In this document: one piece after another, positions 3,349-51,105 of the stretch
How positions within the stretch are numbered: the first letter of the stretch is position 1
Layout of the letters: each line of letters opens with the position of its first letter
Assembly (NCBI GenBank): GCA_963845565.1
Contig: CAWJSJ010000004.1
Location: 96,001 to 160,000, forward strand
Direction of reading: 5' to 3'
DNA length: 64,000 bases
Origin: an uncultured Methylomirabilota bacterium
Lineage (GTDB): Bacteria; Methylomirabilota; Methylomirabilia; Methylomirabilales; 2-02-FULL-66-22
The notes under the pieces: generated by a model
What the model saw: the letters and a program-made list of their open reading frames with translations, nothing else
What the model was told of the DNA's origin: nothing
Database searches by the model: none
Made by a program: the position numbers and the translations under genes

Positions 3349-3400
3349 AAGTGTGCAACGCACGTGCTCCCACGCATTCGGAGCCGTAATGGAGGGTGAC

Positions 3401-5421: not shown

Positions 5422-6279
5422 ATGGCAGAACCGAGGTGGTGGTTGGGACGGGTGATCAGCGATTTCGCCCGCCGCCTGCGCCAGTACGATCTGATGATGA
5501 TGGCAGCCGCCATCGCCTTTTATTGGCTGCTGGGCATCATCCCGATTCTGCTGCTCGGCGGTTCCATCACCGGGTACGTGCTCGGCTCCTCCGACCGGGG
5601 AGTGGACGAGGTGATGACGCTGGCGCGCCGCCTGATCCCTAGGGCGACCGGCCGCGACGTGGAGGATTTCCTCCGTCCCCTCATCCAGAGCCGGCACATC
5701 ACCGGTGTCCTGGGTATCGGGTTCCTGCTCTGGGTGGCCATGGGGGTCTTCGAGGCGATCGCCTCGTCACTCACGGCGCTCAGCGGTGGGCGGGAGAGCC
5801 GATCCTATCTCCGGCGAAAACTGGTCGCCTTGGTGCTGATGGGCACCGCCGGGATGCTGTTCATCTCGGCGCTGATGGGTGGGTGGATCCTCGCCGCGTG
5901 GCCGGAGATCGAGATTCTGATCGGCGCCCGCATCGTCCTGCCTCCGTTCTTGACCCACCCCAGTTTCCCGCGGTACTTTACCTCCATCCTCATGACGTTG
6001 CTCCTCACCATCGTGTATCGGGTCGCCCCGGTCCGGGCCATCCGCTGGCCCTGGGCCATCACCGGGGCGACGGTGGCGGCGTTGCTCTGGCACCAAGCGC
6101 GGACGCTTTTCAACTGGTACCTGATCCACTACGCGCGTTATAACCTGTTCTACGGGATCCTGGGCGGTTTCATCGGCCTGGTACTGTGGATCTACTACAC
6201 GGCAATCATTCTACTGATCGGCGGCATGCTGGCGGACGTCCTCGATCGTGCGGGCCGGCCTGGCCGGAATCGCACCTAG
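5422..6279 (+). CDS. YihY / virulence factor BrkB family membrane protein
   Basis: AAAIAFY...P, YG.LGG.I..LWIYY motifs; multiple TM helices. Confidence 0.88.
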   Translation: MAEPRWWLGRVISDFARRLRQYDLMMMAAAIAFYWLLGIIPILLLGGSITGYVLGSSDRGVDEVMTLARRLIPRATGRDVEDFLRPLIQSRHITGVLGIGFLLWVAMGVFEAIASSLTALSGGRESRSYLRRKLVALVLMGTAGMLFISALMGGWILAAWPEIEILIGARIVLPPFLTHPSFPRYFTSILMTLLLTIVYRVAPVRAIRWPWAITGATVAALLWHQARTLFNWYLIHYARYNLFYGILGGFIGLVLWIYYTAIILLIGGMLADVLDRAGRPGRNRT

Positions 6280-9973: not shown

Positions 9974-11787
9974 ATGATGCGCAGCGCGACGTGGTTGCGG
10001 CACCCCGGTCGCACCGGCCGCGAGACGGCGGTGTGCGTGCGGACACCGCCTGGACCTCCTGGCGAGGAGCCGTCGCCGCATCGGGGATCGACGCGCCGCG
10101 CACGGGGTCTGGGGGTGCCGCGGGTGATCCTGGGCACGCTGGTGACGTCGATCTGCCTGGCTGCGGCCTTGACCGGGCAGGCCCTGGCCGCTGCGGACCA
10201 GGCCGCGCCCTCTGCGGCGGGGATCGACGCGGGGACGGAGTACGCGCGGGCGTCGGTCACCTTGGACGGCGAGGAGCTGTTCTCTGTCCGCGGGGTCGAG
10301 GCCTACCCGGCCGACACGCGGGCCCAGGCCATCGGCGGACGCATCACGGCCATGGCGGCCGATCGCTGCCGTGTCGGTCGAGGCGCTCCGACTGGTGGAG
10401 ACGGAGCGTGGGACCGATATCCTGGCCGGCGATCGGTTCCTGATGACCGTGACCGACGCAGACGCCAAACGCGACGGCGTGACGCACCAGTTCATGGCGA
10501 GCGCGGTCCGGCGGCGGATCGCGGATGCGGTGGCGTCGTACCGCAGCGAGCGGACTCCCAAGGCCCTGTTGATCAAGACCGGTGTCGCCGCGGGCGCCAC
10601 GTTGGTGGCCTGGCTTCTGCTGCTCGGGCGTGCGTCGCGCATTTCGGTGGATCGATGCATTCCTGGGGCGGCGGGCCAAGGGTGCCGTGGAGGGTCTGGA
10701 GACCCAAGCCTTTCGACTCATTCAGGCGAAGCAGCTTGTCGCGGCGCTCCACGGCCTCGTCGTCTCGCTCCGGGTGCTGGCGATCGTGGCGGTCGTGTAC
10801 GCCTATCTCCAGGTGGTCCTCGAGTTGTATCCCTGGAGTCGTCCGCTGTCCCGCCACCTGTCCGCCATGTTTCTCGACCCGCTCGCCAGCATGGGCGTGT
10901 CGTTCCTGGAGGCCCTGCCCAACCTGGTGTTCCTCGTCGTCTTGACGCTGCTGACACGCTACTTCCTCAGGCTCCTCAAGCTTTTCTTCAGCGGCGTCGA
11001 GAAGGGCACCGTCGCCCTCGCCGGCTTCGACCCGGACTGGGCCTGGCCGACCTATCGGATTATCCGGCTCCTCGTCGTCGCGTTCGCGGTGGTGGTGGCC
11101 TACCCCTACATTCCGGGCTCGCGGTCGGCCGCCTTTCAGGGGGTGTCGATCTTCATCGGGGTGATATTCTCGCTCGGCTCCTCGTCGTTGATTGCCAACC
11201 TGATTGCGGGGTACAGCATGACCTACCGGCGCACCTTCCGGGTCGGGGACCGGATCCAGGTGGGCGACGTCATGGGGGATGTCACCGAGAGCGGACTGAT
11301 GGTCACGCGCGTGCGGACGCCCAAGAACGAAGAGGTCGTCGTGCCGAACTCCTCGATTCTGAGCAACCATATCGTGAACTACAGCGCGCTGGCCACGCAG
11401 CACGGACTGATCCTGCATACCACGGTGGGAATCGGGTACGAGACCCCCTGGCGCCAGGTGGAGGCGATGCTGATCATGGCGGCTGAGCGGACGCCCGGAC
11501 TGCTCAGGGAGCCGCCGCCGTTCGTCCTGCAGAAGAACCTCGGTGACTTCTGTGTGACGTACGAGATCAACGCCCACTGCGACAATGCGCAGGCCATGGC
11601 CAGGCTGTACACTGACCTGCACCGGAACATCCTCGACCTCTTCAACGAGTACGGCGTGCAGATCATGACGCCGGCATACGAGGGGGACCCGCACCAGCCA
11701 AAGGTGGTGCCGAGGGAGCAGTGGTTCACCGCGCCGGCGCGGTCGCCGGAGACCAGGCCGCCGACGGCGCACGGGACGCAACCGTGA
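9974..11787 (+). pseudogene. MscS-family mechanosensitive channel broken by two +1 frameshifts (~10367 and ~10627), possibly sequencing errors
   Basis: Signal peptide and periplasmic region in ORF 9008, middle in ORF 10371, MscS core (FRVGDRI, VVVPNS, VGIGYE) in ORF 10582. Confidence 0.75.
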
Positions 11788-42643: not shown

Positions 42644-43150
42644 ATGGGCGCTCCGGATCATCGCGTCGCAGCGCAGGCGGTGAAGACCGTCTCCTACGCG
42701 ATCCTGACGGTGAGTGACAGCCGAACGGAGGCGACGGACGATTCGGGCCGGCTGATTCGGGCCCTCTTCACGGAGGCGGGGCACCGCTTGACGGATTACG
42801 AACTGGTGCGGAACTCCCCGGCGCACATCCGGGCGGCGGTCCGCCGATTCCTGCAGGGGGCGGCCCAATGTTTGGTCACGACCGGGGGTACGGGGGCCGG
42901 GCGGCGAGACATCACCGTGGAGACGCTCACGCCGCTCCTTGACAAGCTCCTCCCCGGGTTCGGCGAGTTGTTTCGCTGGCGCAGCGTTCAGGAGATCGGC
43001 ACCGCCGCCATGTTGAGCCGGGCGCTATGCGGAGTGAGTCGGGGAAAAGTGATCTGCTGTCTTCCGGGGTCCGAGGCTGCGGTGCGCCTGGGGATCGGAA
43101 CACTGTTGCTCCCGGAGCTTCCGCATCTAATTTGGGTTGCGAGCCGATGA
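42644..43150 (+). CDS. moaB: MogA/MoaB-family molybdenum cofactor protein
   Basis: TVSDS, DDSG, TTGGTG...RD.T.E, PGFGELFR, LSRA, LPGS. Confidence 0.88.
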   Translation: MGAPDHRVAAQAVKTVSYAILTVSDSRTEATDDSGRLIRALFTEAGHRLTDYELVRNSPAHIRAAVRRFLQGAAQCLVTTGGTGAGRRDITVETLTPLLDKLLPGFGELFRWRSVQEIGTAAMLSRALCGVSRGKVICCLPGSEAAVRLGIGTLLLPELPHLIWVASR

Positions 43151-43185
43151 GGGCCGGCCCGCTCTGACACGGAAGGAGGCTGGGC

Positions 43186-43383
43186 ATGCCGGAGCAGGAG
43201 CGAAAGCAAAAGCGGACCGATGCCGCGCCGCCGTCTGGAGGCGGCCAGGGGTCGGCCACCGCCGCGACCAAGGGCAAAAAGCTCAAAGAGGACATGGATC
43301 GGTTGGTCGATGAGATCGACGACGTGTTGGAGGAGAATGCCGAGGAGTTCGTGAAGAGTTACGTCCAGCGCGGTGGGGAATAA
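43186..43383 (+). CDS. pup: Prokaryotic ubiquitin-like protein Pup, ending in Glu
   Basis: DEIDDVLEENAEEFVKSYVQRGGE matches the Pup C-terminal signature; AGGAGG RBS. Confidence 0.93.
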   Translation: MPEQERKQKRTDAAPPSGGGQGSATAATKGKKLKEDMDRLVDEIDDVLEENAEEFVKSYVQRGGE

Positions 43384-43420
43384 CGCCGGCCGACCCGATC
43401 GATTGCCATGAGGAGCGTCC

Positions 43421-43639
43421 ATGCCGATCTACGAATTTGTTTGTGAGCAGTGTGCACACGCCTTCGAGAAGCGCGTCGCCTCCAGTCGGACGCGGGTCCG
43501 GTGCCCGCAGTGCGAGAGTGGGCGGGTGACCCGCCAGTTCTCCACCTTCGCCTTCAAGGGCGAACGCGGTTTTGTGGGATCGCACCGCGGAGGCTGTGCG
43601 GGCTGTTCCAGCGGCGGGTGAGGGACGTGCAGCCACTGA
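43421..43639 (+). CDS. FmdB-family zinc-ribbon protein, candidate selenoprotein (UGA at 43619-43621)
   Basis: MPIYEFVCEQC...CPQC; tail CAGCSSGG-TGA-GTCSH-TGA; SECIS-like hairpin downstream. Confidence 0.75.
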
Positions 43640-43669
43640 TCCCCCGCGGGCCGGGGGAACCTGCAAGTC
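43624..43669 (+). promoter_or_regulatory. Candidate bacterial SECIS element
   Basis: Upper stem TCCCCCG/CGGGGGA with loop CGGGC starting 25 nt after the UGA; lower stem TGCAG/CTGCA. Confidence 0.6.
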
Positions 43670-43760
43670 GAGTTCGGCGATCATGGCTGGGGATACCCCC
43701 CAGCCATTCGCGTCTTGGGTCGCGAGGCCTGCGCGGGCCGCGAACCCGGCCCGAAAGGGC

Positions 43761-43791
43761 TTGACACCCCTTTGAAGCCGATTAATATAAA
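43761..43791 (+). promoter_or_regulatory. Promoter upstream of arc
   Basis: TTGACA followed by AT-rich TAATATAAAA (spacer 16-19). Confidence 0.55.
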
Positions 43792-43887
43792 ACTTGGACG
43801 TCATTCCTGCGTGCGACGTGTTGCCAGGCCCTCCGCGGGCCGGTATCCGGGCGAACGCGGCGGGGGGTGGGTCGGAGGCGAACGATC

Positions 43888-45702
43888 ATGGGTGAATCGG
43901 ACACCAAGATGAACTCGCTGCGCAAGACGGTGCGGAGGCTCTCGGGGCAGGAGCCGCGATCGGAGGCCGGGAGTCCGCAACCCAGCGGCCAATACGAGAC
44001 GGACAACGACAACCTTCAGGCGCAGGTCAAGGCGCTGGAAGAAGAGATGTTCCACCTGCGTCGGCGGCTGGAGCAGACGCCGCGGGAGTTCGAGTTCCTG
44101 CGCAACAAGCTGAGCCAGTCGCGGGAGCAGTTGGACCACGCGCAGGCGCAGAACGAGCGGCTGGCGGGTGTGCTCGGCCAAGCAAAGGATCAGATCGCGG
44201 CGCTCCGCGCCGAGGTGGATAAGCTGGCGGCTCCGCCGTCCAGTTACGGGACGATCCTCCAGGTCCATCCGGACGACACGGTGGACGTGTGGACCGGCGG
44301 GCGGAAGCTCAAGGTGAACGTCACTCCCAGCGTGGATCCGGCGGCGCTGCGCCGCGGCCGCGAGGTGGTGCTGAACGAGGCGCTGAACGTCGTGGATCTG
44401 AGCGGCGGCGACCCGCAGGGCGAGATCGTCCGCCTGAAGGACCGCCTGGACGAGACGCGCGCCATGGTGACGCTGCGTGCCGACGAGGAGCGGGTGGTCG
44501 AACTGGCGGCCGACCTCGCCGCCGCCTTGCAGCCGGGGGACCTGCTGCGCCTGGACGCCAAAGCGGGGGTGGTCCTGGAGAAGCTCCCCAAGGCGGAGGT
44601 CGAGGATCTCGTCTTGGAAGAGGTCCCCAACATCACCTACACCGATATCGGCGGGTTGGCGGCGCAGATCGACCAGATCCGCGACGCCATCGAGCTGCCG
44701 GTCCTGTACGCCGACCACTTTGCGGTGCACAAGCTCTCGCCCCCCAAGGGGGTGCTGCTGTACGGGCCGCCGGGGTGCGGCAAGACGCTCATCGCCAAAG
44801 CGGTGGCCAATGCCTTGGCGCAGCAGCTCAGCCGCCAGACCGGCACGCCCAGCCGGGCGTACTTCCTCAACGTGAAGGGGCCCGAACTGCTCAACAAGTA
44901 CGTGGGCGAAACAGAGCGGAAGCTCCGCGAGATCTTCGCCCGCGCTCGGGAGAAGGCCAGCGCCGGTGCCCCCGTGGTCATCTTCTTCGACGAGATGGAT
45001 TCCCTCTTCCGGACGCGCGGATCGGGCATCTCCTCGGACGTGGAATCCACCATCGTCCCGCAGTTCTTGGCGGAGCTGGACGGCGTGGAGGGGCTCCGGC
45101 ATGTGATCGTGATCGGCGCCAGCAACCGGCAGGACCTGATCGATCCGGCCGTCCTCCGGCCGGGCCGCTTCGACGTGAAGATCCGCATCGACCGCCCCAA
45201 CCGGGAGGCGGCGCGCGAGATCTTCGCCAAGTACCTGACGACCGATCTGCCGTGGGCCGCCCCGGCGTTGGCAGCCCACGGGGACGACCCGGCGGCCACG
45301 GCGGCCGCCCTGATCGAGGAGGCGCTGACGGAGATGTTTTCCGGCGACGACGCCCACCGTTTCCTGGAGGTCACCTATGCGTCCGGGGAGAAGGAGACGC
45401 TCTACTTCAAGGACTTCGTGAGTGGGGCGATGATCGAGAGCGTCTGCACGCGGGCCAAGAAGACGGCGGTCAAGCGCATGATCACCACCGGCGTCAAGGG
45501 GATCGGTGCGGCGGATCTGACGGACGCGGTCAAGGCGGAGTTCCGGGAGAACGAGGATCTTCCCAACACCACCAACCCCGACGACTGGGCCAAGATTGCC
45601 GGCCGCCGCGGGGAACGCATCGTGCATGTCCGGCCGGTGTTCGACCGCGAAGCGAAGAAGCCCCGCAAGGTCGAGAACATCAGCACGGGCCACTATCTCT
45701 GA
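43888..45702 (+). CDS. arc: Proteasome ATPase ARC/Mpa
   Basis: N-terminal coiled coil, OB domains, GPPGCGKT, FFDEMD, LPNTTNPDDWA, C-terminal GHYL (HbYX-type). Confidence 0.96.
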   Translation: MGESDTKMNSLRKTVRRLSGQEPRSEAGSPQPSGQYETDNDNLQAQVKALEEEMFHLRRRLEQTPREFEFLRNKLSQSREQLDHAQAQNERLAGVLGQAKDQIAALRAEVDKLAAPPSSYGTILQVHPDDTVDVWTGGRKLKVNVTPSVDPAALRRGREVVLNEALNVVDLSGGDPQGEIVRLKDRLDETRAMVTLRADEERVVELAADLAAALQPGDLLRLDAKAGVVLEKLPKAEVEDLVLEEVPNITYTDIGGLAAQIDQIRDAIELPVLYADHFAVHKLSPPKGVLLYGPPGCGKTLIAKAVANALAQQLSRQTGTPSRAYFLNVKGPELLNKYVGETERKLREIFARAREKASAGAPVVIFFDEMDSLFRTRGSGISSDVESTIVPQFLAELDGVEGLRHVIVIGASNRQDLIDPAVLRPGRFDVKIRIDRPNREAAREIFAKYLTTDLPWAAPALAAHGDDPAATAAALIEEALTEMFSGDDAHRFLEVTYASGEKETLYFKDFVSGAMIESVCTRAKKTAVKRMITTGVKGIGAADLTDAVKAEFRENEDLPNTTNPDDWAKIAGRRGERIVHVRPVFDREAKKPRKVENISTGHYL

Positions 45703-45810
45703 GCCCCGACCCCGCGTTCCGAATCCCCCGAGAGGCGAACCGCCGCGTGGGGCGGCGGTGTGGGTGACCAGCCGTGCGGCGCTGCGGCGCCGTACCGAAA
45801 GGATAGCTGC

Positions 45811-47295
45811 ATGGCGATCGAGAAGATCATGGGGAGCGAGACGGAGCTCGGCATCACTACCCACACCGCGTCCGGTTTCGATCCCGTGGGCGGCGCCATC
45901 TTTCTGATCAACGCCGTGCCCGAGGAGGCGTCCTCGCGGGCGTTGTGGGACTACACGGGAGAGAACCCACTCCTGGACGCGCGGGGCTACGAGGCGACCG
46001 GAGAACGCGAGCGGCCCACGGCCCAGGATAACCGTGCGCTCAACAAGGTGCTGGCGAACGGCGGGCGCCTCTACGTCGACGGCGCCCACCCCGAGTACTC
46101 GACCCCCGAGACCAGCAACGCCCGGGATCTCGTGCTGTTCGAAAAAGCCGGGGAGCGGCTGGCCGACGCCTGCCGCGAGGCGGCCAACCGAACGCTTCCG
46201 CCGCACCAGCAGTTGGTGCTGTACAAGAACAACAGCGACGGCAAAGGGAACAGCTACGGCTATCATGAGAACTACCTGGTGGCCCGGAGCGTGCCCTTCG
46301 AGCGGTTGGTGGAGGCGTTGACCCCGTTCTTGGTTTCCCGCATCGTCGTGGCGGGTGCGGGCAAGGTGGGGGCCGAGAACGGCGCCGAGCCCTGCGCCTA
46401 CCAGATCTCCCAGCGGGCCGATTTCTTCGAGACGCTGATCGGTTTGGATACCATGGCGAAGCGGCCGATCATCAACACCCGCGACGAGCCCCACGCCGAC
46501 GAGGAGCGGTACCGCCGCCTCCACGTCATCGTGGGCGACTCCAACCTGGCCGAGGTGAGCACCTACCTCAAGGTCGGGACCACGGCCCTGGTGCTGGCCA
46601 TGGTGGAGGACGGCGCCCTCCGGAAGGACCTCGCCCTGGAAGATCCGGTGCGGGCCATCAAGGAGATCTCCCACGACACCACCTGCACCCGGAAGGTCCG
46701 CCTGAAGCGGGGGACGGAGGTCTCGGCGGTCGAACTCCAGCGGGAGTACCTGGAGCTGGCGCAGGCCTACTACGCCACGGTCGAGCAGTCCCCCCAGGTC
46801 ACCGACCTCCTGGAGCGCTGGGACCGGGTCCTGACCCAGCTCGCCGAGGACCCCCGCCAGTGCGCCCGGGAGCTGGACTGGGTCATCAAGCAGGCGCTCC
46901 TCGAGGCGTACACCAGCCGGAAGGGGATCGGGTTCGACGATCAGCGCGTCAGCATGCTGGATCTGCAGTACCACGATCTTCGCATGGACAAGGGGCTGTA
47001 CTACCGGTTGGAGCGAGAGGGAATGGTGGAGCGGCTGCTCAGCGACGAGGAGATTGGCCGGGCCATGCACCTGCCCCCCACGGACACCCGGGCCTATTTC
47101 CGGGGGACGTGCGTGCGGCGTTTCGGGGCGCAGGTGTGCGGCGCCAGCTGGACGTCCATCCTGCTGGACACCGGGGACGCCGCCGTGAAGCGCATCCCCA
47201 TGGCGGAACCCGCGCGAGGGACGCGGAAACTGGTGGGCGAGATCCTGGAGCGCGCGGACAGCGTGAAGGATCTCCTGGAGCGACTGGCCGGGTAG
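45811..47295 (+). CDS. dop: Depupylase/deamidase Dop
   Basis: GSETELG, Dop-loop WDYTGENPLLDARG, YVDGAHPEY, NNSDGKG.SYG.HENY, SQRADFFE, DTRAYFRG. Confidence 0.93.
   Translation: MAIEKIMGSETELGITTHTASGFDPVGGAIFLINAVPEEASSRALWDYTGENPLLDARGYEATGERERPTAQDNRALNKVLANGGRLYVDGAHPEYSTPETSNARDLVLFEKAGERLADACREAANRTLPPHQQLVLYKNNSDGKGNSYGYHENYLVARSVPFERLVEALTPFLVSRIVVAGAGKVGAENGAEPCAYQISQRADFFETLIGLDTMAKRPIINTRDEPHADEERYRRLHVIVGDSNLAEVSTYLKVGTTALVLAMVEDGALRKDLALEDPVRAIKEISHDTTCTRKVRLKRGTEVSAVELQREYLELAQAYYATVEQSPQVTDLLERWDRVLTQLAEDPRQCARELDWVIKQALLEAYTSRKGIGFDDQRVSMLDLQYHDLRMDKGLYYRLEREGMVERLLSDEEIGRAMHLPPTDTRAYFRGTCVRRFGAQVCGASWTSILLDTGDAAVKRIPMAEPARGTRKLVGEILERADSVKDLLERLAG
46468..46976 (+). repeat. 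Direct repeat copy 1 (509 bp) inside dop
   Basis: No mismatch found on manual comparison with 49575-50083; runs ATCATCAACACCCGC...CAGTACCACGA. Confidence 0.95.
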
Positions 47296-47443
47296 GGACA
47301 ACAGGACAATCCGGCACGCCGGCAATTGGGCGACTTGGCGATCCGGAAATCAGGCGACAGGGCGGATGGTCCGTCCCGTCTCCTGGCGGCCGAATTGCGG
47401 AATTGTCAAATTGCGGCTAATCAACGACGGAGGCGAGAGGCCT

Positions 47444-48241
47444 GTGGACGTCCATTTCAGTCGACATGACGCGGGATCCAGCTTTTTCGACTTGGTGCGG
47501 GAGCGTGAGCCGAATCTCCTGCCGCGGTTCGCGCCGGGGCGGGAGGGAGGCGAAGGAATGCCGGGGGTGCCGGTGGGCACGACCGTTCTGGCGCTGAAGT
47601 ACCAGGCCGGCGTGGTGATCGCCGGCGACCGGCAGGCCACCGAGGGATACCAGGTGGCCTCGCGGCGGATCGAGAAAGTGTACGCTGCCGACGAGTATTC
47701 CGCCGTCGCGATCGCCGGCGCGGCCGGGCCCTGTATCGAGATGGTCCGACTGTTCCAGACGGAGCTGGCCCATTACGAGAAGATCGAGGGGATGCACCTG
47801 AGTCTGGAGGGAAAGGCCAACCGGCTGGCCCAGATGGTGCGCGCCAACCTCCCGCTGGCAATGCAGGGCCTACTGGTGGTGCCCATCTTCGCGGGCTACG
47901 ACCTGAAACGCAGCGAGGGGCGGATCTTCAAGTACGACGTCGCCGGGGGGCGTTACGAGGAAGCGGAATATTTCTCCATCGGCTCCGGCGGCAAGGACGC
48001 CCGCTCCAGCTTGAAGAAGTTGTACCGGCCCGGCCTCGCCGAGGAGGAGGCCGTGCGCACGGCCCTGGAGGCGCTCTACGACGCCGCCGACGAGGACCGC
48101 GGGACGGGCGGCCCCGATTTCGTGCGGGGCATCTTTCCGACCGTGAAGCTGGTCACGAGGGGCGGGGCGCTGGACGTTCCCGAGGATCGGGTGGCGAGCG
48201 CCTGCGCGGCGATCGCGGAGGCACGCAAGACGGCCGCCTGA
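47444..48241 (+). CDS. prcB: 20S proteasome beta subunit
   Basis: Propeptide then G/TTVLALKY (Thr1), AGDRQAT, GSGG. Confidence 0.95.
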   Translation: MDVHFSRHDAGSSFFDLVREREPNLLPRFAPGREGGEGMPGVPVGTTVLALKYQAGVVIAGDRQATEGYQVASRRIEKVYAADEYSAVAIAGAAGPCIEMVRLFQTELAHYEKIEGMHLSLEGKANRLAQMVRANLPLAMQGLLVVPIFAGYDLKRSEGRIFKYDVAGGRYEEAEYFSIGSGGKDARSSLKKLYRPGLAEEEAVRTALEALYDAADEDRGTGGPDFVRGIFPTVKLVTRGGALDVPEDRVASACAAIAEARKTAA

Positions 48242-48296
48242 GTGGTGGGCGACCGATCGTCCCCATCACCGCCGGCCCATCGAGAAGGATGACATC

Positions 48297-48986
48297 ATGC
48301 CCTTACCGTATTACGTGTCGCCCGAGCAGATGATGCAGGATAAGGCGGAGTACGCCCGCAAGGGCATCGCCAAAGGCAAGTCCATCATCGCCCTGGAGTA
48401 TGCCGGCGGTGTGCTGATCGTGGCCGAGAACCCCAGCGCGTCGCTCAACAAAGTCTCGGAGCTCTACGACCGGATCGCCTTCGCCGGGGCCGGCAAGTAC
48501 GGCGAGTTCGAGCGACTGCGCAAGGAGGGGATCCGGTACGCGGACATGAAGGGCTACGCCTACGGGCGGGAGGACGTCACCGCCAAATCGCTCGCCAACG
48601 CGTACTCCCAGGTGATCGGGAATATCTTCAGCATGGAGATCAAGCCGCTCGAGGCGGAGATCCTCGTCCTGGAAGTGGGCGAGGAGGCCGACGTGAACGA
48701 GCTCTACCGGATCGCGTTCGACGGAAGCATCGCCGACGAGAAGGGCTACACCAGCATCGGGGGCCAGGCGGAGGAGCTGAAACTGTTCCTGAAGGACAAG
48801 TTCGCCGAGGGGCTCGGCCTCGAGGCGGCCCTGCAGATGGCCACGCGCGCCCTGGAGGCGGCGGCCAGCCAGAAGGTGAAGGCCGCGACCCTGGAGGTTG
48901 CGGTCCTGGATCGGGCCCGGCTGGGGCGAAAGTTTCGACGGCTGCCCCAGGCGGAGTTGCGGGCCATGGTCGAGGCGGGCGGCTAG
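48297..48986 (+). CDS. prcA: 20S proteasome alpha subunit
   Basis: PYYVSPEQMMQDKAEYARKGI, KVSELYDRI, KPLE.E, LEVAVLDR. Confidence 0.95.
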   Translation: MPLPYYVSPEQMMQDKAEYARKGIAKGKSIIALEYAGGVLIVAENPSASLNKVSELYDRIAFAGAGKYGEFERLRKEGIRYADMKGYAYGREDVTAKSLANAYSQVIGNIFSMEIKPLEAEILVLEVGEEADVNELYRIAFDGSIADEKGYTSIGGQAEELKLFLKDKFAEGLGLEAALQMATRALEAAASQKVKAATLEVAVLDRARLGRKFRRLPQAELRAMVEAGG

Positions 48987-49007
48987 GCGCCGCGCCGTGT
49001 GACCGCC

Positions 49008-50366
49008 ATGCAGCGGCGGATCTTTGGCCTGGAAACCGAATACGGCCTGATCTCCTCCTCCACCGGGGGGACCATGAGCCTCTCGGTCGAGAGCGCGCTG
49101 GGCTACCTTTTCGAAAAGGTGGTGTCGCGGCAGCGCGGCACCAACGACTTTCTGCGCAACGGGGCGCGGCTGTATCAGGACACCGGGTGCCACCCCGAGT
49201 ATGCGACCCCCGAGTGCGACAATCCTCTGGAACTCACCCTGCACGACAAGGCCGGCGAGCGGATCGTCGAGGAGTTGCTGCTCACCGCGGAGCAGCGACT
49301 GCGCGACGGCGGGATTGCCTGCGACATCTTCGTCTTCAAGAACAACACCGATTCCGTCGGGAACACGTACGGCTGTCACGAGAACTACCTGGTGGAGCGC
49401 ACGGTCAACTTCCACAAGCTGGCCGAACTGCTCATCCCCTTCTTCGTGACCCGGCAGGTGTTCGCCGGTGCCGGGAAGGTGTTGAAGACCCGCCTGGGGA
49501 ATCATTATTATATCTCCCAGCGGGCGCAGCATATTTACCAGGAGATTTCGGGGGCCACCACCAGCTCGCGGGGTATCATCAACACCCGCGACGAGCCCCA
49601 CGCCGACGAGGAGCGGTACCGCCGCCTCCACGTCATCGTGGGCGACTCCAACCTGGCCGAGGTGAGCACCTACCTCAAGGTCGGGACCACGGCCCTGGTG
49701 CTGGCCATGGTGGAGGACGGCGCCCTCCGGAAGGACCTCGCCCTGGAAGATCCGGTGCGGGCCATCAAGGAGATCTCCCACGACACCACCTGCACCCGGA
49801 AGGTCCGCCTGAAGCGGGGGACGGAGGTCTCGGCGGTCGAACTCCAGCGGGAGTACCTGGAGCTGGCGCAGGCCTACTACGCCACGGTCGAGCAGTCCCC
49901 CCAGGTCACCGACCTCCTGGAGCGCTGGGACCGGGTCCTGACCCAGCTCGCCGAGGACCCCCGCCAGTGCGCCCGGGAGCTGGACTGGGTCATCAAGCAG
50001 GCGCTCCTCGAGGCGTACACCAGCCGGAAGGGGATCGGGTTCGACGATCAGCGCGTCAGCATGCTGGATCTGCAGTACCACGACGTGCGGCGCGATCGCG
50101 GGTTCTACTCCATGCTCTGCCGCGCGGGAAAGGTGGACCGGCTTTTCGACGATGCGACGATCGAGCGGGCCATGACGATCCCACCCCAGACCACGCGGGC
50201 CAAGGTCCGGTCGGACTTCATCAACTTTGCCACCGAACGGAACAAGTCCTACGATGTGGGCTGGTCGTATCTGAAGCTGAACGATCGGTACCAGCGGACC
50301 ATCCTCTGCAAGGATCCGTTCAAGCCGTTCGATCCGCGCGTGGAAGAGTTGATCAACTCGGCTTGA
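49008..50366 (+). CDS. pafA: Pup-protein ligase
   Basis: RRIFGLETEYG, FL.NGARLY.D.G.HPEYATPEC, SQRAQHI...SGATT.SR, LCKDPF; no Dop loop. Confidence 0.94.
   Translation: MQRRIFGLETEYGLISSSTGGTMSLSVESALGYLFEKVVSRQRGTNDFLRNGARLYQDTGCHPEYATPECDNPLELTLHDKAGERIVEELLLTAEQRLRDGGIACDIFVFKNNTDSVGNTYGCHENYLVERTVNFHKLAELLIPFFVTRQVFAGAGKVLKTRLGNHYYISQRAQHIYQEISGATTSSRGIINTRDEPHADEERYRRLHVIVGDSNLAEVSTYLKVGTTALVLAMVEDGALRKDLALEDPVRAIKEISHDTTCTRKVRLKRGTEVSAVELQREYLELAQAYYATVEQSPQVTDLLERWDRVLTQLAEDPRQCARELDWVIKQALLEAYTSRKGIGFDDQRVSMLDLQYHDVRRDRGFYSMLCRAGKVDRLFDDATIERAMTIPPQTTRAKVRSDFINFATERNKSYDVGWSYLKLNDRYQRTILCKDPFKPFDPRVEELINSA
49575..50083 (+). repeat. Direct repeat copy 2 (509 bp) inside pafA
   Basis: Identical to 46468-46976; offset 3107 bp; codon-aligned in both genes. 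Confidence 0.95.
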
Positions 50367-50484
50367 GGGGTTACAGTAGAGAGGTAGTTGGGGGAAAGGT
50401 GCGGGGTCACCCGGGACCCGGCGGTTTCGGGTACATGGCGTCGGATGCCTTGAGTGCACGGCTCACGAAAGGAGAGGGACCACC

Positions 50485-50976
50485 ATGTTGTCCAAGACCA
50501 TGCAGGACGCGGTGAACGAGCAGATTCAGAAGGAGTACTATTCGTCGTACCTGTATCTGGCCATGTCCGCCTACTGCGAGGCGAACAATCTCCCGGGCTC
50601 CGCCAGGTGGATGCGGCTGCAGAGCCAGGAAGAGCTGTCTCACGCGATGAAGCTGTATGACCACGTGTGCGATCGGGGTGGGCGGGTGACCCTGCAGGCC
50701 CTCCAGCAGCCGCCGGCCGAGTACAAGTCGGCCCTGGACATCTTTCAGAAGGTCCTGGAGCATGAGCAACACGTGACCGCCTCCATCCACAAACTGTACG
50801 CCTTGGCCGTCAAGGAGAACGATTATCCCGGACAGATCGCGCTTCAGTGGTTCGTCACGGAGCAGGTGGAGGAAGAGAAGAACGCCGGCTTGATCGTGGA
50901 GCAGCTGAAGGCGGTCGGCGAGAGCAAGACCTCGCTGATGCTACTGGACCGGGCTCTCGGCAAACGGGGTCAGTAG
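50485..50976 (+). CDS. ftnA: Non-heme ferritin
   Basis: NEQIQKEYYSSYLYLAM, QSQEELSHA, HEQHVT, LQWFVTEQVEEE ferroxidase motifs. Confidence 0.93.
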   Translation: MLSKTMQDAVNEQIQKEYYSSYLYLAMSAYCEANNLPGSARWMRLQSQEELSHAMKLYDHVCDRGGRVTLQALQQPPAEYKSALDIFQKVLEHEQHVTASIHKLYALAVKENDYPGQIALQWFVTEQVEEEKNAGLIVEQLKAVGESKTSLMLLDRALGKRGQ

Positions 50977-51105
50977 GACGACACCTCCGGCGCCCATTTC
51001 GCGGCGGCGGACACACGACCAGGCGGGGCGGCGTGGATGACACGCCGCCCCGCGGCTATTTGGCGGTCCGGCGTCGCCAAGCGTGCCACCGGGCGGCCTC
51101 CGGCC

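Follow-up and report, generated by a model that had tools for sequence, protein, structure and literature searches.

Evidence for concerted evolution of an internal segment common to the Pup ligase and depupylase genes of Methylomirabilales

The closest described counterparts of the locus reported here were the actinobacterial depupylase Dop and Pup ligase PafA (TIGR03688 and TIGR03686; PDB 4B0R, 4B0T and 4BJR) and, with respect to the evolutionary process, bacterial paralogues that evolve in concert, such as tufA/tufB and the rRNA operons. In the results of Hecht et al. 2020 (PMC7947786), Dop was turned into a ligase by changes at S27-P103, in the alpha-loop F208-K220 and at S452 together with deletion of the Dop-loop; in its parts on results and in Sup_file_4, this paper mentioned NC10 just as a sporadic holder. 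For concerted evolution, the main text of Wang and Chen 2018 (PMC6053082) covered 26 long-lasting cases where paralogues within a genome were closer to each other than to orthologues, synonymous sites included, and where the process was recurrent over long times. Here, we analysed a stretch of 64,000 nucleotides from an uncultured Methylomirabilota bacterium (contig CAWJSJ010000004.1), called the window below, in which the dop and pafA genes bracketed the proteasome genes prcB and prcA and had an internal 509-bp block in common. We consider it very likely that this block, the cassette, evolves in concert through recurrent gene conversion between its direct copies.

The locus resembled the actinobacterial system in many respects: its Dop and PafA passed the curated cut-offs, each carried the alpha-loop specific to its family, Dop had the Dop-loop, and the gene set was complete. 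It differed from that system in the placement of pup upstream of mpa, in a Pup ending in GGE and, above all, in the cassette. In four Actinomycetota genomes the corresponding block had 45-49% protein identity between Dop and PafA and did not exceed the N-terminal flank in similarity, whereas in the window the identity was 100%. By sequence, the best solved relative of the window PafA was a Dop structure (4b0r, 363.5 bits) rather than the PafA structure (4b0t, 347 bits). As to the known concerted cases in the main text of PMC6053082, the copies had the same job and the whole gene was usually involved, whereas in dop and pafA a fixed internal module of enzymes with opposite reactions was affected. 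The words pafA, Pup and proteasome did not occur in that main text, supplements aside. No description of gene conversion between dop and pafA was found in the literature searched, although subscription journals and supplements may hold one. The process itself was known; what was unusual here was its restriction to a fixed internal module, its occurrence between two enzymes with opposite reactions and its stability across an order.

The cassette in the window

The first copy of the cassette was located at 46468..46976 of the forward strand, inside dop (45760..47295), and the second one at 49575..50083 of the same strand, inside pafA (48999..50366). They were identical at 509 of 509 bases with an offset of 3107, and this was the longest identical run between the two genes; the next longest runs had only 14 and 9 bases. 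In the 30-base bins adjoining the block the number of matching bases was 9 to 22, and the flanks were about 55% identical. Exactly two copies of the cassette were present in the 5.36-Mb genome. Both started at the first position of a codon when counted from the GTG starts of the two open reading frames (ORFs; 46468-45760 = 708 and 49575-48999 = 576) and encoded 169 identical residues plus two bases, corresponding to residues 237-405 of Dop and 193-361 of PafA. If the ATG codons were used instead (49008 in pafA and 45811 in dop, the latter being the likely start of this gene rather than GTG 45760), the ranges were 220-388 and 190-358, respectively. Thus, all the observations of a preliminary description of the window on this point were confirmed, namely the base-for-base match, the codon alignment with its residue ranges and the abrupt divergence of the flanks. 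The 3107-bp spacing and the in-frame chimera that it had calculated were also correct; with both copies beginning at codon position 1, a crossover between them would give an in-frame product.

The cassette included the nucleotide-pocket loop IINTRDEPHAD and, by alignment, corresponded to I223-H394 of Acidothermus Dop. In the AlphaFold model of PafA (mean predicted local distance difference test score 87.5), the cassette part consisted of one strand of the cradle, a small hairpin and seven helices. Within residues 190-358, numbered from ATG 49008, the strand was at 204-209 and the helices at 218-236, 249-258, 276-292, 298-316, 318-321, 326-341 and 348-357. The alpha-loop directly before the block was modelled with low confidence. 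A search of Rfam over 43000-51000 gave 0 matches, and no functional RNA was found in the block.

Such perfect identity could have been produced by assembly or polishing collapse of two merely similar segments, since polishing can homogenise repeats and the source genome was assembled in 6 contigs, with contamination estimated at 6.4%. The probability of this explanation was practically nil. Twelve other assemblies had the block with 98% identity or more, and the 1-9 scattered differences in several of them were unlike a collapse. The edges of the block were codon-exact and constant across genomes. Moreover, in two metagenome runs from different studies (X1 and X4, examined as Logan contigs) the cassette was a single unitig of double depth: 46472-46973 at a depth of 16.3 with flanks at 6.9-9.6 in X1, and 46516-46976 at a depth of 18 with flanks at 7.4-9.5 in X4. 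The independent assemblies and the unitig depths of the two runs exclude the collapse that the preliminary description had named as a refuting case. The cassette unitig in the Logan contigs had a C-to-T change at 46620, and a contig of a close strain (L171) had changes at 46620 and 46756 in both cassette copies, which came nearest to a direct view of conversion. Two closed genomes were among those in which the identity of the block reached 98% or more. The search covered 41 genomes, the window's own and 40 relatives, and in 13 of them contigs started or stopped within the cassette, as is usual where assemblers meet a repeat that they fail to resolve. Chance was likewise excluded as the source of the 509/509 match, since dop and pafA were 55-70% identical in nucleotides and 45-62% in protein over the same columns in 50 genomes from other phyla, among them Nitrospirota and Actinomycetota.

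Probable recurrent gene conversion in Methylomirabilales

The dop and pafA genes from 16 Methylomirabilales genomes and 9 outgroups were codon-aligned, and identity was calculated over the columns of the window's cassette. A block of about 507 bp was at least 98% identical between dop and pafA within 13 of the 22 Methylomirabilales genomes checked. The identity was 100% in the window's own genome (G000) and in G014, G015, G016, G034 and G053, the last of these a closed genome of 2.75 Mb where it extended over 510 bp. It was 99.8% in G005, G012, G023 and G031, 99.6% in G039 and G057 (the latter without a mismatch) and 98.2% in G026. Lower values were found in G009 (96.5%) and G020 (95.7%), in both of which dop was frameshifted, in G047 (91.0%), in G017 (86.5%, over a partial 245 bp), and in G022, G002, G008, G025 and G029 (83.6%, 80.5%, 78.9%, 74.2% and 74.0%, respectively). 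Throughout the order the flanks of dop and pafA were 50-66% identical, and the nine outgroup cassettes were 58-70% identical. It had been argued before that a lack of the identity in relatives would point to a one-off conversion; 12 of the relatives did share it at 98% or more.

Metagenome contigs extended this distribution, with 506 of 507 positions identical in L169 and 166 of 171 in L188. In a protein-level survey of 66 genomes of the order, a cassette match was found in 43 and two complete cassettes in 20; among the latter the two scores were equal in 10, within 4 bits in 4 and different in 6. In sister families of the same class (20 genomes) the best match of dop to pafA of the same genome was 67-71% in 19, and 78.9% over 546 bp in the remaining one (G149). 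Three unpublished genomes were also tallied, and none of the claims made here depends on them. The dop genes of two high-contiguity relatives (G020:C3, locus L049, and G009:C40, locus L048) were split by frameshifts or stops. These were likely errors of long reads that had been left uncorrected, and the cassette differences of the two genomes may be too high for the same reason.

Separate trees for the cassette and for the flanks, a test proposed in the preliminary description, gave different results. In the maximum-likelihood tree of the cassette, dop paired with pafA genome by genome, so that 19 changes between the dop and pafA labels were needed. All 32 Methylomirabilales cassettes formed one clade (98/98), with branches of 0.03-0.15 substitutions per site between genomes. 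A clade of the 16 dop cassettes was rejected by the approximately unbiased (AU) test at a cost of 1339 log-likelihood units (p-AU 1.4e-42). On the other hand, the flanks of the same genes were split into dop and pafA with 100/100 support and one label change, and joining the dop and pafA flanks of the window's genome was rejected as well (cost 295 log-likelihood units, p 3.8e-126). Since the cassette clustered by genome and its flanks by gene, the conversion was recurrent rather than a single ancestral event. Accordingly, the trees and the AU tests bore out the earlier proposal of a recent or ongoing gene conversion that is maintained. Within the 11 converting genomes the two cassettes had 0-9 differences in 507 nt, compared to a median proportion of synonymous differences (pS) of 0.44 between their orthologous cassettes.

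Some lineages provided insights into the course of the process. In G025 and G029 the dop cassettes were a sister pair and so were the pafA cassettes, which indicated a shared older conversion. In G002, G008 and G022 the two cassettes paired within each genome on long branches. Lineages thus escape and then diverge. In G039 pafA was 11 kb away and the cassette was still 99.6% identical; thus, distance was not limiting. About 8 kb was inserted between prcA and pafA of this genome (L042, 3750-11770), including genes for an ECF-type sigma factor, an Eco57I-like restriction-modification system and a HEPN (LA2681-like) protein, as well as a 91-bp inverted repeat (5905-5995 / 10696-10785).

Outside the window, two tuf (EF-Tu) genes of the same genome, a classic pair for conversion (L142, G000:C2:2319974-2321207 and 2336276-2337509) were 100% identical over 1234 bp at a distance of 16 kb, which indicated that conversion was active in this genome. 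Three further pairs of repeats were observed there. A 530-bp block, 98.3% identical and about 5 kb apart (L139, G000:C1:283291-283820 / 288430-288959), corresponded to N-terminal regions with PAS in a hybrid histidine kinase and in a sigma-54 activator, and was thus a second module common to neighbours with different outputs. Two pairs of direct repeats had copies 3-7 kb apart: one of 383 bp with 99.5% identity (L140, G000:C1:587619-588001 / 590800-591182) was in ORFs without a Pfam match, and another of 316 bp with 99.7% identity (L141, G000:C2:780335-780650 / 786908-787223) touched ORFs for DoxX-like and TPP-enzyme proteins.

The edges of the cassette were nearly fixed. In 11 of 11 converting genomes the left edge was at a common nucleotide to within 0-1 nt and the right edge was +2 to +15 nt beyond a common codon, and the left edge followed AKRP in Dop and SSRG in PafA. 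The GC content at third codon positions (GC3) was higher in the block than in all four flanks in 10 of the 11 converting genomes, in none of the 5 non-converting ones and in none of the 4 outgroups, these genomes being related to each other; for example, in G026 it was 90.5 in the block and 69-77 in the flanks. This excess would fit GC-biased conversion.

We propose that non-reciprocal homologous recombination of the RecA type acts between the direct copies, which are usually 3.1 kb apart, and that repeated conversion would overwrite new mutations of one copy with the other copy. The block would then stay identical within a genome, synonymous sites included, and drift freely between genomes. 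It may represent a portion of the fold that suits either enzyme: the IINTRDEPHAD loop, a single strand of the active-site cradle and, behind this cradle, the helical bundle. Conversion would halt at fixed edges, at the alpha-loop upstream and at the region leading to the C-terminal domain downstream. These regions have diverged between the paralogues and would hence provide no homology for heteroduplex extension, and tracts that overrun the alpha-loop determinants of ligase versus hydrolase were probably selected against. The repair may be GC-biased.

Several points weighed against this model. The conversion mechanism, including the dependence on RecA, was deduced from sequence patterns. Nine of the 22 genomes were below 98%, so that the process was not universal in the order, and some of these lineages had escaped at the same 3.1-kb spacing. 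The cassette edges did not erode inwards, as the edges of homology-limited tracts should, and this would need either selection or motifs at the edges that are strongly conserved. Causes other than biased conversion may account for the GC3 excess, for which the related genomes were non-independent samples. Finally, the direction of transfer was undecidable: the window's cassette was 54.0% identical at the amino acid level to the Dop cassettes of the nine outgroups and 53.8% to their PafA cassettes.

Another explanation is that the identity itself is selected, as a partner common to both enzymes, be it Pup, the nucleotide, the substrate or the other enzyme, would have to meet the same surface on each of them, and conversion would let the writer and the eraser co-evolve in step. 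In its favour, the identity pattern was long-lasting across an order, and the block held residues of functional sites: the nucleotide-pocket H231, which stacks with the Dop-loop W47 and with W453 according to the relevant part of PMC8599861, as well as R207 and R218, two of the three arginines assigned to substrate site 2 of PafA in a section of PMC10465538. However, the identity reached synonymous sites, where it was not required by protein-level selection. The ratio of nonsynonymous to synonymous differences (pN/pS) was 0.36-0.37 in the block, compared to 0.12-0.24 in the N-terminal flanks; the block was thus the less constrained part, and this spoke against the view that the main cause was selection on the proteins to stay the same. 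Moreover, 9 of the 22 genomes managed without near-identity, and the same pathway was present in the 50 genomes of other phyla with 45-62% amino acid identity in the block. Selection for sameness was therefore unlikely as an alternative to recurrent conversion.

A more ancient event of the same kind was considered in Nitrospirota (loci L058-L117), where the protein identity between Dop and PafA was 46-61% in the cassette and 41-48% in the N-terminal flank. The cassettes of ten dop genes and those of ten pafA genes were sister clades (95/97), which hinted at ancient conversion, but the AU test did not reject the monophyly of Dop (p 0.07), and we did not retain this candidate. In the flank trees, two Nitrospira genomes nested inside Methylomirabilales for both genes, suggesting a possible transfer of the locus.

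Ligase and depupylase specificity and the proteasome locus

The results section and Table 1 of PMC7947786 allowed a comparison of the block with the positions that separate the two activities. None of the mutated positions was inside the block: all 22 rows of that table were N-terminal of it, in the alpha-loop, which ends three residues before it, or at S452 of Acidothermus Dop. Among the 48 positions called uniquely conserved in that paper, 33 preceded the block, 10 were within it and 5 followed it. At the 10 positions within, the window's cassette was a mosaic of Dop-like and PafA-like states, which agreed with the finding that it was equally far from the Dop and the PafA of the outgroups. 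These comparisons supported the conclusion that the block is not what distinguishes ligase from depupylase and that the specificity lies outside of it, as the preliminary description had proposed. By experiment, the results of Hecht et al. 2020 led to the same conclusion, with the activity difference outside I223-H394. The difference was that residues were changed there in one actinobacterial enzyme, whereas here the remaining core was common to both enzymes in nature.

The two proteins of the window could be assigned to their families. Dop, a predicted depupylase, scored 570.1 bits as a whole protein with TIGR03688, above the curated equivalog cut-off of 492.3, and had a Dop-loop insert with LWDY. 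Its Dop-type alpha-loop, FFETLIGLDTMAKRP, aligned to F208-P222 of the Acidothermus protein and kept the Dop-type residues E, G, L and K at the positions of E210, G214, L215 and K220. PafA cleared the equivalog cut-off of TIGR03686 by a narrow margin (575.3 bits compared to 551.3). It was without a Dop-loop and had a PafA-type alpha-loop, HIYQEISGATTSSRG, with H, S, A and S at the positions of H188, S194, A196 and S200 of the Corynebacterium glutamicum protein; these residues were kept in all 16 aligned PafA sequences of Methylomirabilales.

The gene set pup-mpa-dop-prcB-prcA-pafA was complete in the window, and all six genes were on the forward strand. The pup gene (43186..43383) encoded a protein of 65 residues that matched PF05639 with 73.7 bits, above the cut-off, and ended in QRGGE. 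Judging from this terminus, the window Pup is predicted to be ready for ligation without deamidation, and Dop would not be required as a deamidase here. The proteasome ATPase gene mpa/arc (43867..45702) scored 725 bits with TIGR03689 (cut-off 504.75). The beta subunit gene prcB (47366..48241) matched TIGR03690 with 319.9 bits over ORF residues 68-287; a propeptide preceded this match, and the start position of the gene was uncertain. The alpha subunit gene prcA (48297..48986) matched TIGR03691 with 308.2 bits. In the window's genus pup was upstream of mpa, and no pup or Pup-like ORF was found in the stretch between dop and prcB of the window. In some other Methylomirabilales-like contigs (among L169, L170, L180 and L188) pup was located between dop and prcB. 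After pafA was a ferritin-like gene (50485-50976; NF007638, 123 bits, below the cut-off of 178), which also followed the metagenome contigs of hybrid type L166, L174 and L181.

Crossovers between the copies and the meaning of the shared core

Crossovers between perfect direct repeats of 509 bp must happen at some low rate. The preliminary description had suggested that they delete, amplify in tandem or release as a circle the 3107-bp prcB-prcA unit and thereby control the copy number of the proteasome. The crossover product would be in frame, and arrangements of recombinant type were present among metagenome contigs. Out of 78 loci returned, 32 Methylomirabilales-like contigs were mapped, and they gave 20 passes through the whole cassette with both sides visible. 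Ten of these passes were canonical, seven contigs had the order DopN-cassette-PafAC, some of them starting in mpa and some reaching the ferritin gene, and three had the order PafAN-cassette-DopC. However, a perfect 509-bp repeat is beyond the phasing of short reads, and random joining predicts that one half of the passes would be of recombinant type, exactly as observed (10 of 20), so that these contigs were ambiguous as evidence for the switch.

Individual contigs were also considered as cases of such a switch. The contig L171 (6498 bp) contained 2.09 head-to-tail laps of a 3107-bp unit prcA-pafA(N)-cassette-dop(C)-prcB; it matched itself at 3387 of 3391 positions with a period of 3107 and was 99.7-99.8% identical to the window. 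The contig G018:C331 (L019, 3143 bp) was a closed loop of the prcB-prcA unit. Both were either assembly loop artefacts or tandem or circular molecules. In the 93%-complete bin G001, one contig was a hybrid and prcB was not detected; the hybrid was without 43 nt of the cassette exactly at the switch and looked like a misjoin. As natural recombinants, G001 was rejected because of this gap at the join and G018 because of its loop contig, the bins of both being without the neighbouring genes. In G041 the pafA contig ended in prcA and decided nothing. A joint row in X2, leading from 48666 to 46164 with foreign letters between, looked like another organism and was set aside.

Other data were against the switch. 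The canonical order was present in all seven high-contiguity assemblies (G000, G014, G053, G020, G009, G039 and G026), and the depth between the repeats equalled that of the outer flanks (9.55 compared to 6.9-9.6 in X1, and 7.76 compared to 7.4-9.5 in X4). In the locus searched there was no recombinase gene or specific site beside the repeats, and an excised circle would have no known origin of replication. We thus regard it as very unlikely that the prcB-prcA pair is a recombination-bounded unit truly deleted, amplified in tandem or circularised in natural populations, with L171, the G018 loop and the seven mpa-dop(N)-cassette-pafA(C) contigs as real molecules. Copy-number control of the proteasome by such crossovers was very unlikely indeed. 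If the unit did behave in this way, recombination would change the dosage of the proteasome and the balance of writer and eraser, and the sequence identity across the order would be a trace left by these exchanges.

Recurrent conversion of the cassette has several consequences. For annotators and assemblers it is a warning: short-read assemblies are broken or wrongly joined at this locus, and a tree built from whole Dop and PafA genes of these taxa is a mosaic. The excess of GC at silent sites bears on the question of GC-biased conversion in bacteria. Moreover, the locus offers a clean case of segmental concerted evolution that can be dated, in which the bacterial paralogues have opposed functions, the edges are fixed and lineages are present at every stage of escape. 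For the biology of the Methylomirabilales, it may be considered as a natural domain-swap experiment, where the predicted ligase and depupylase work across an order with the same 169-residue core. This would confirm independently that the opposite activities of the two enzymes depend on the Dop-loop and the alpha-loop together with the N-terminal part and the C-terminal domain.

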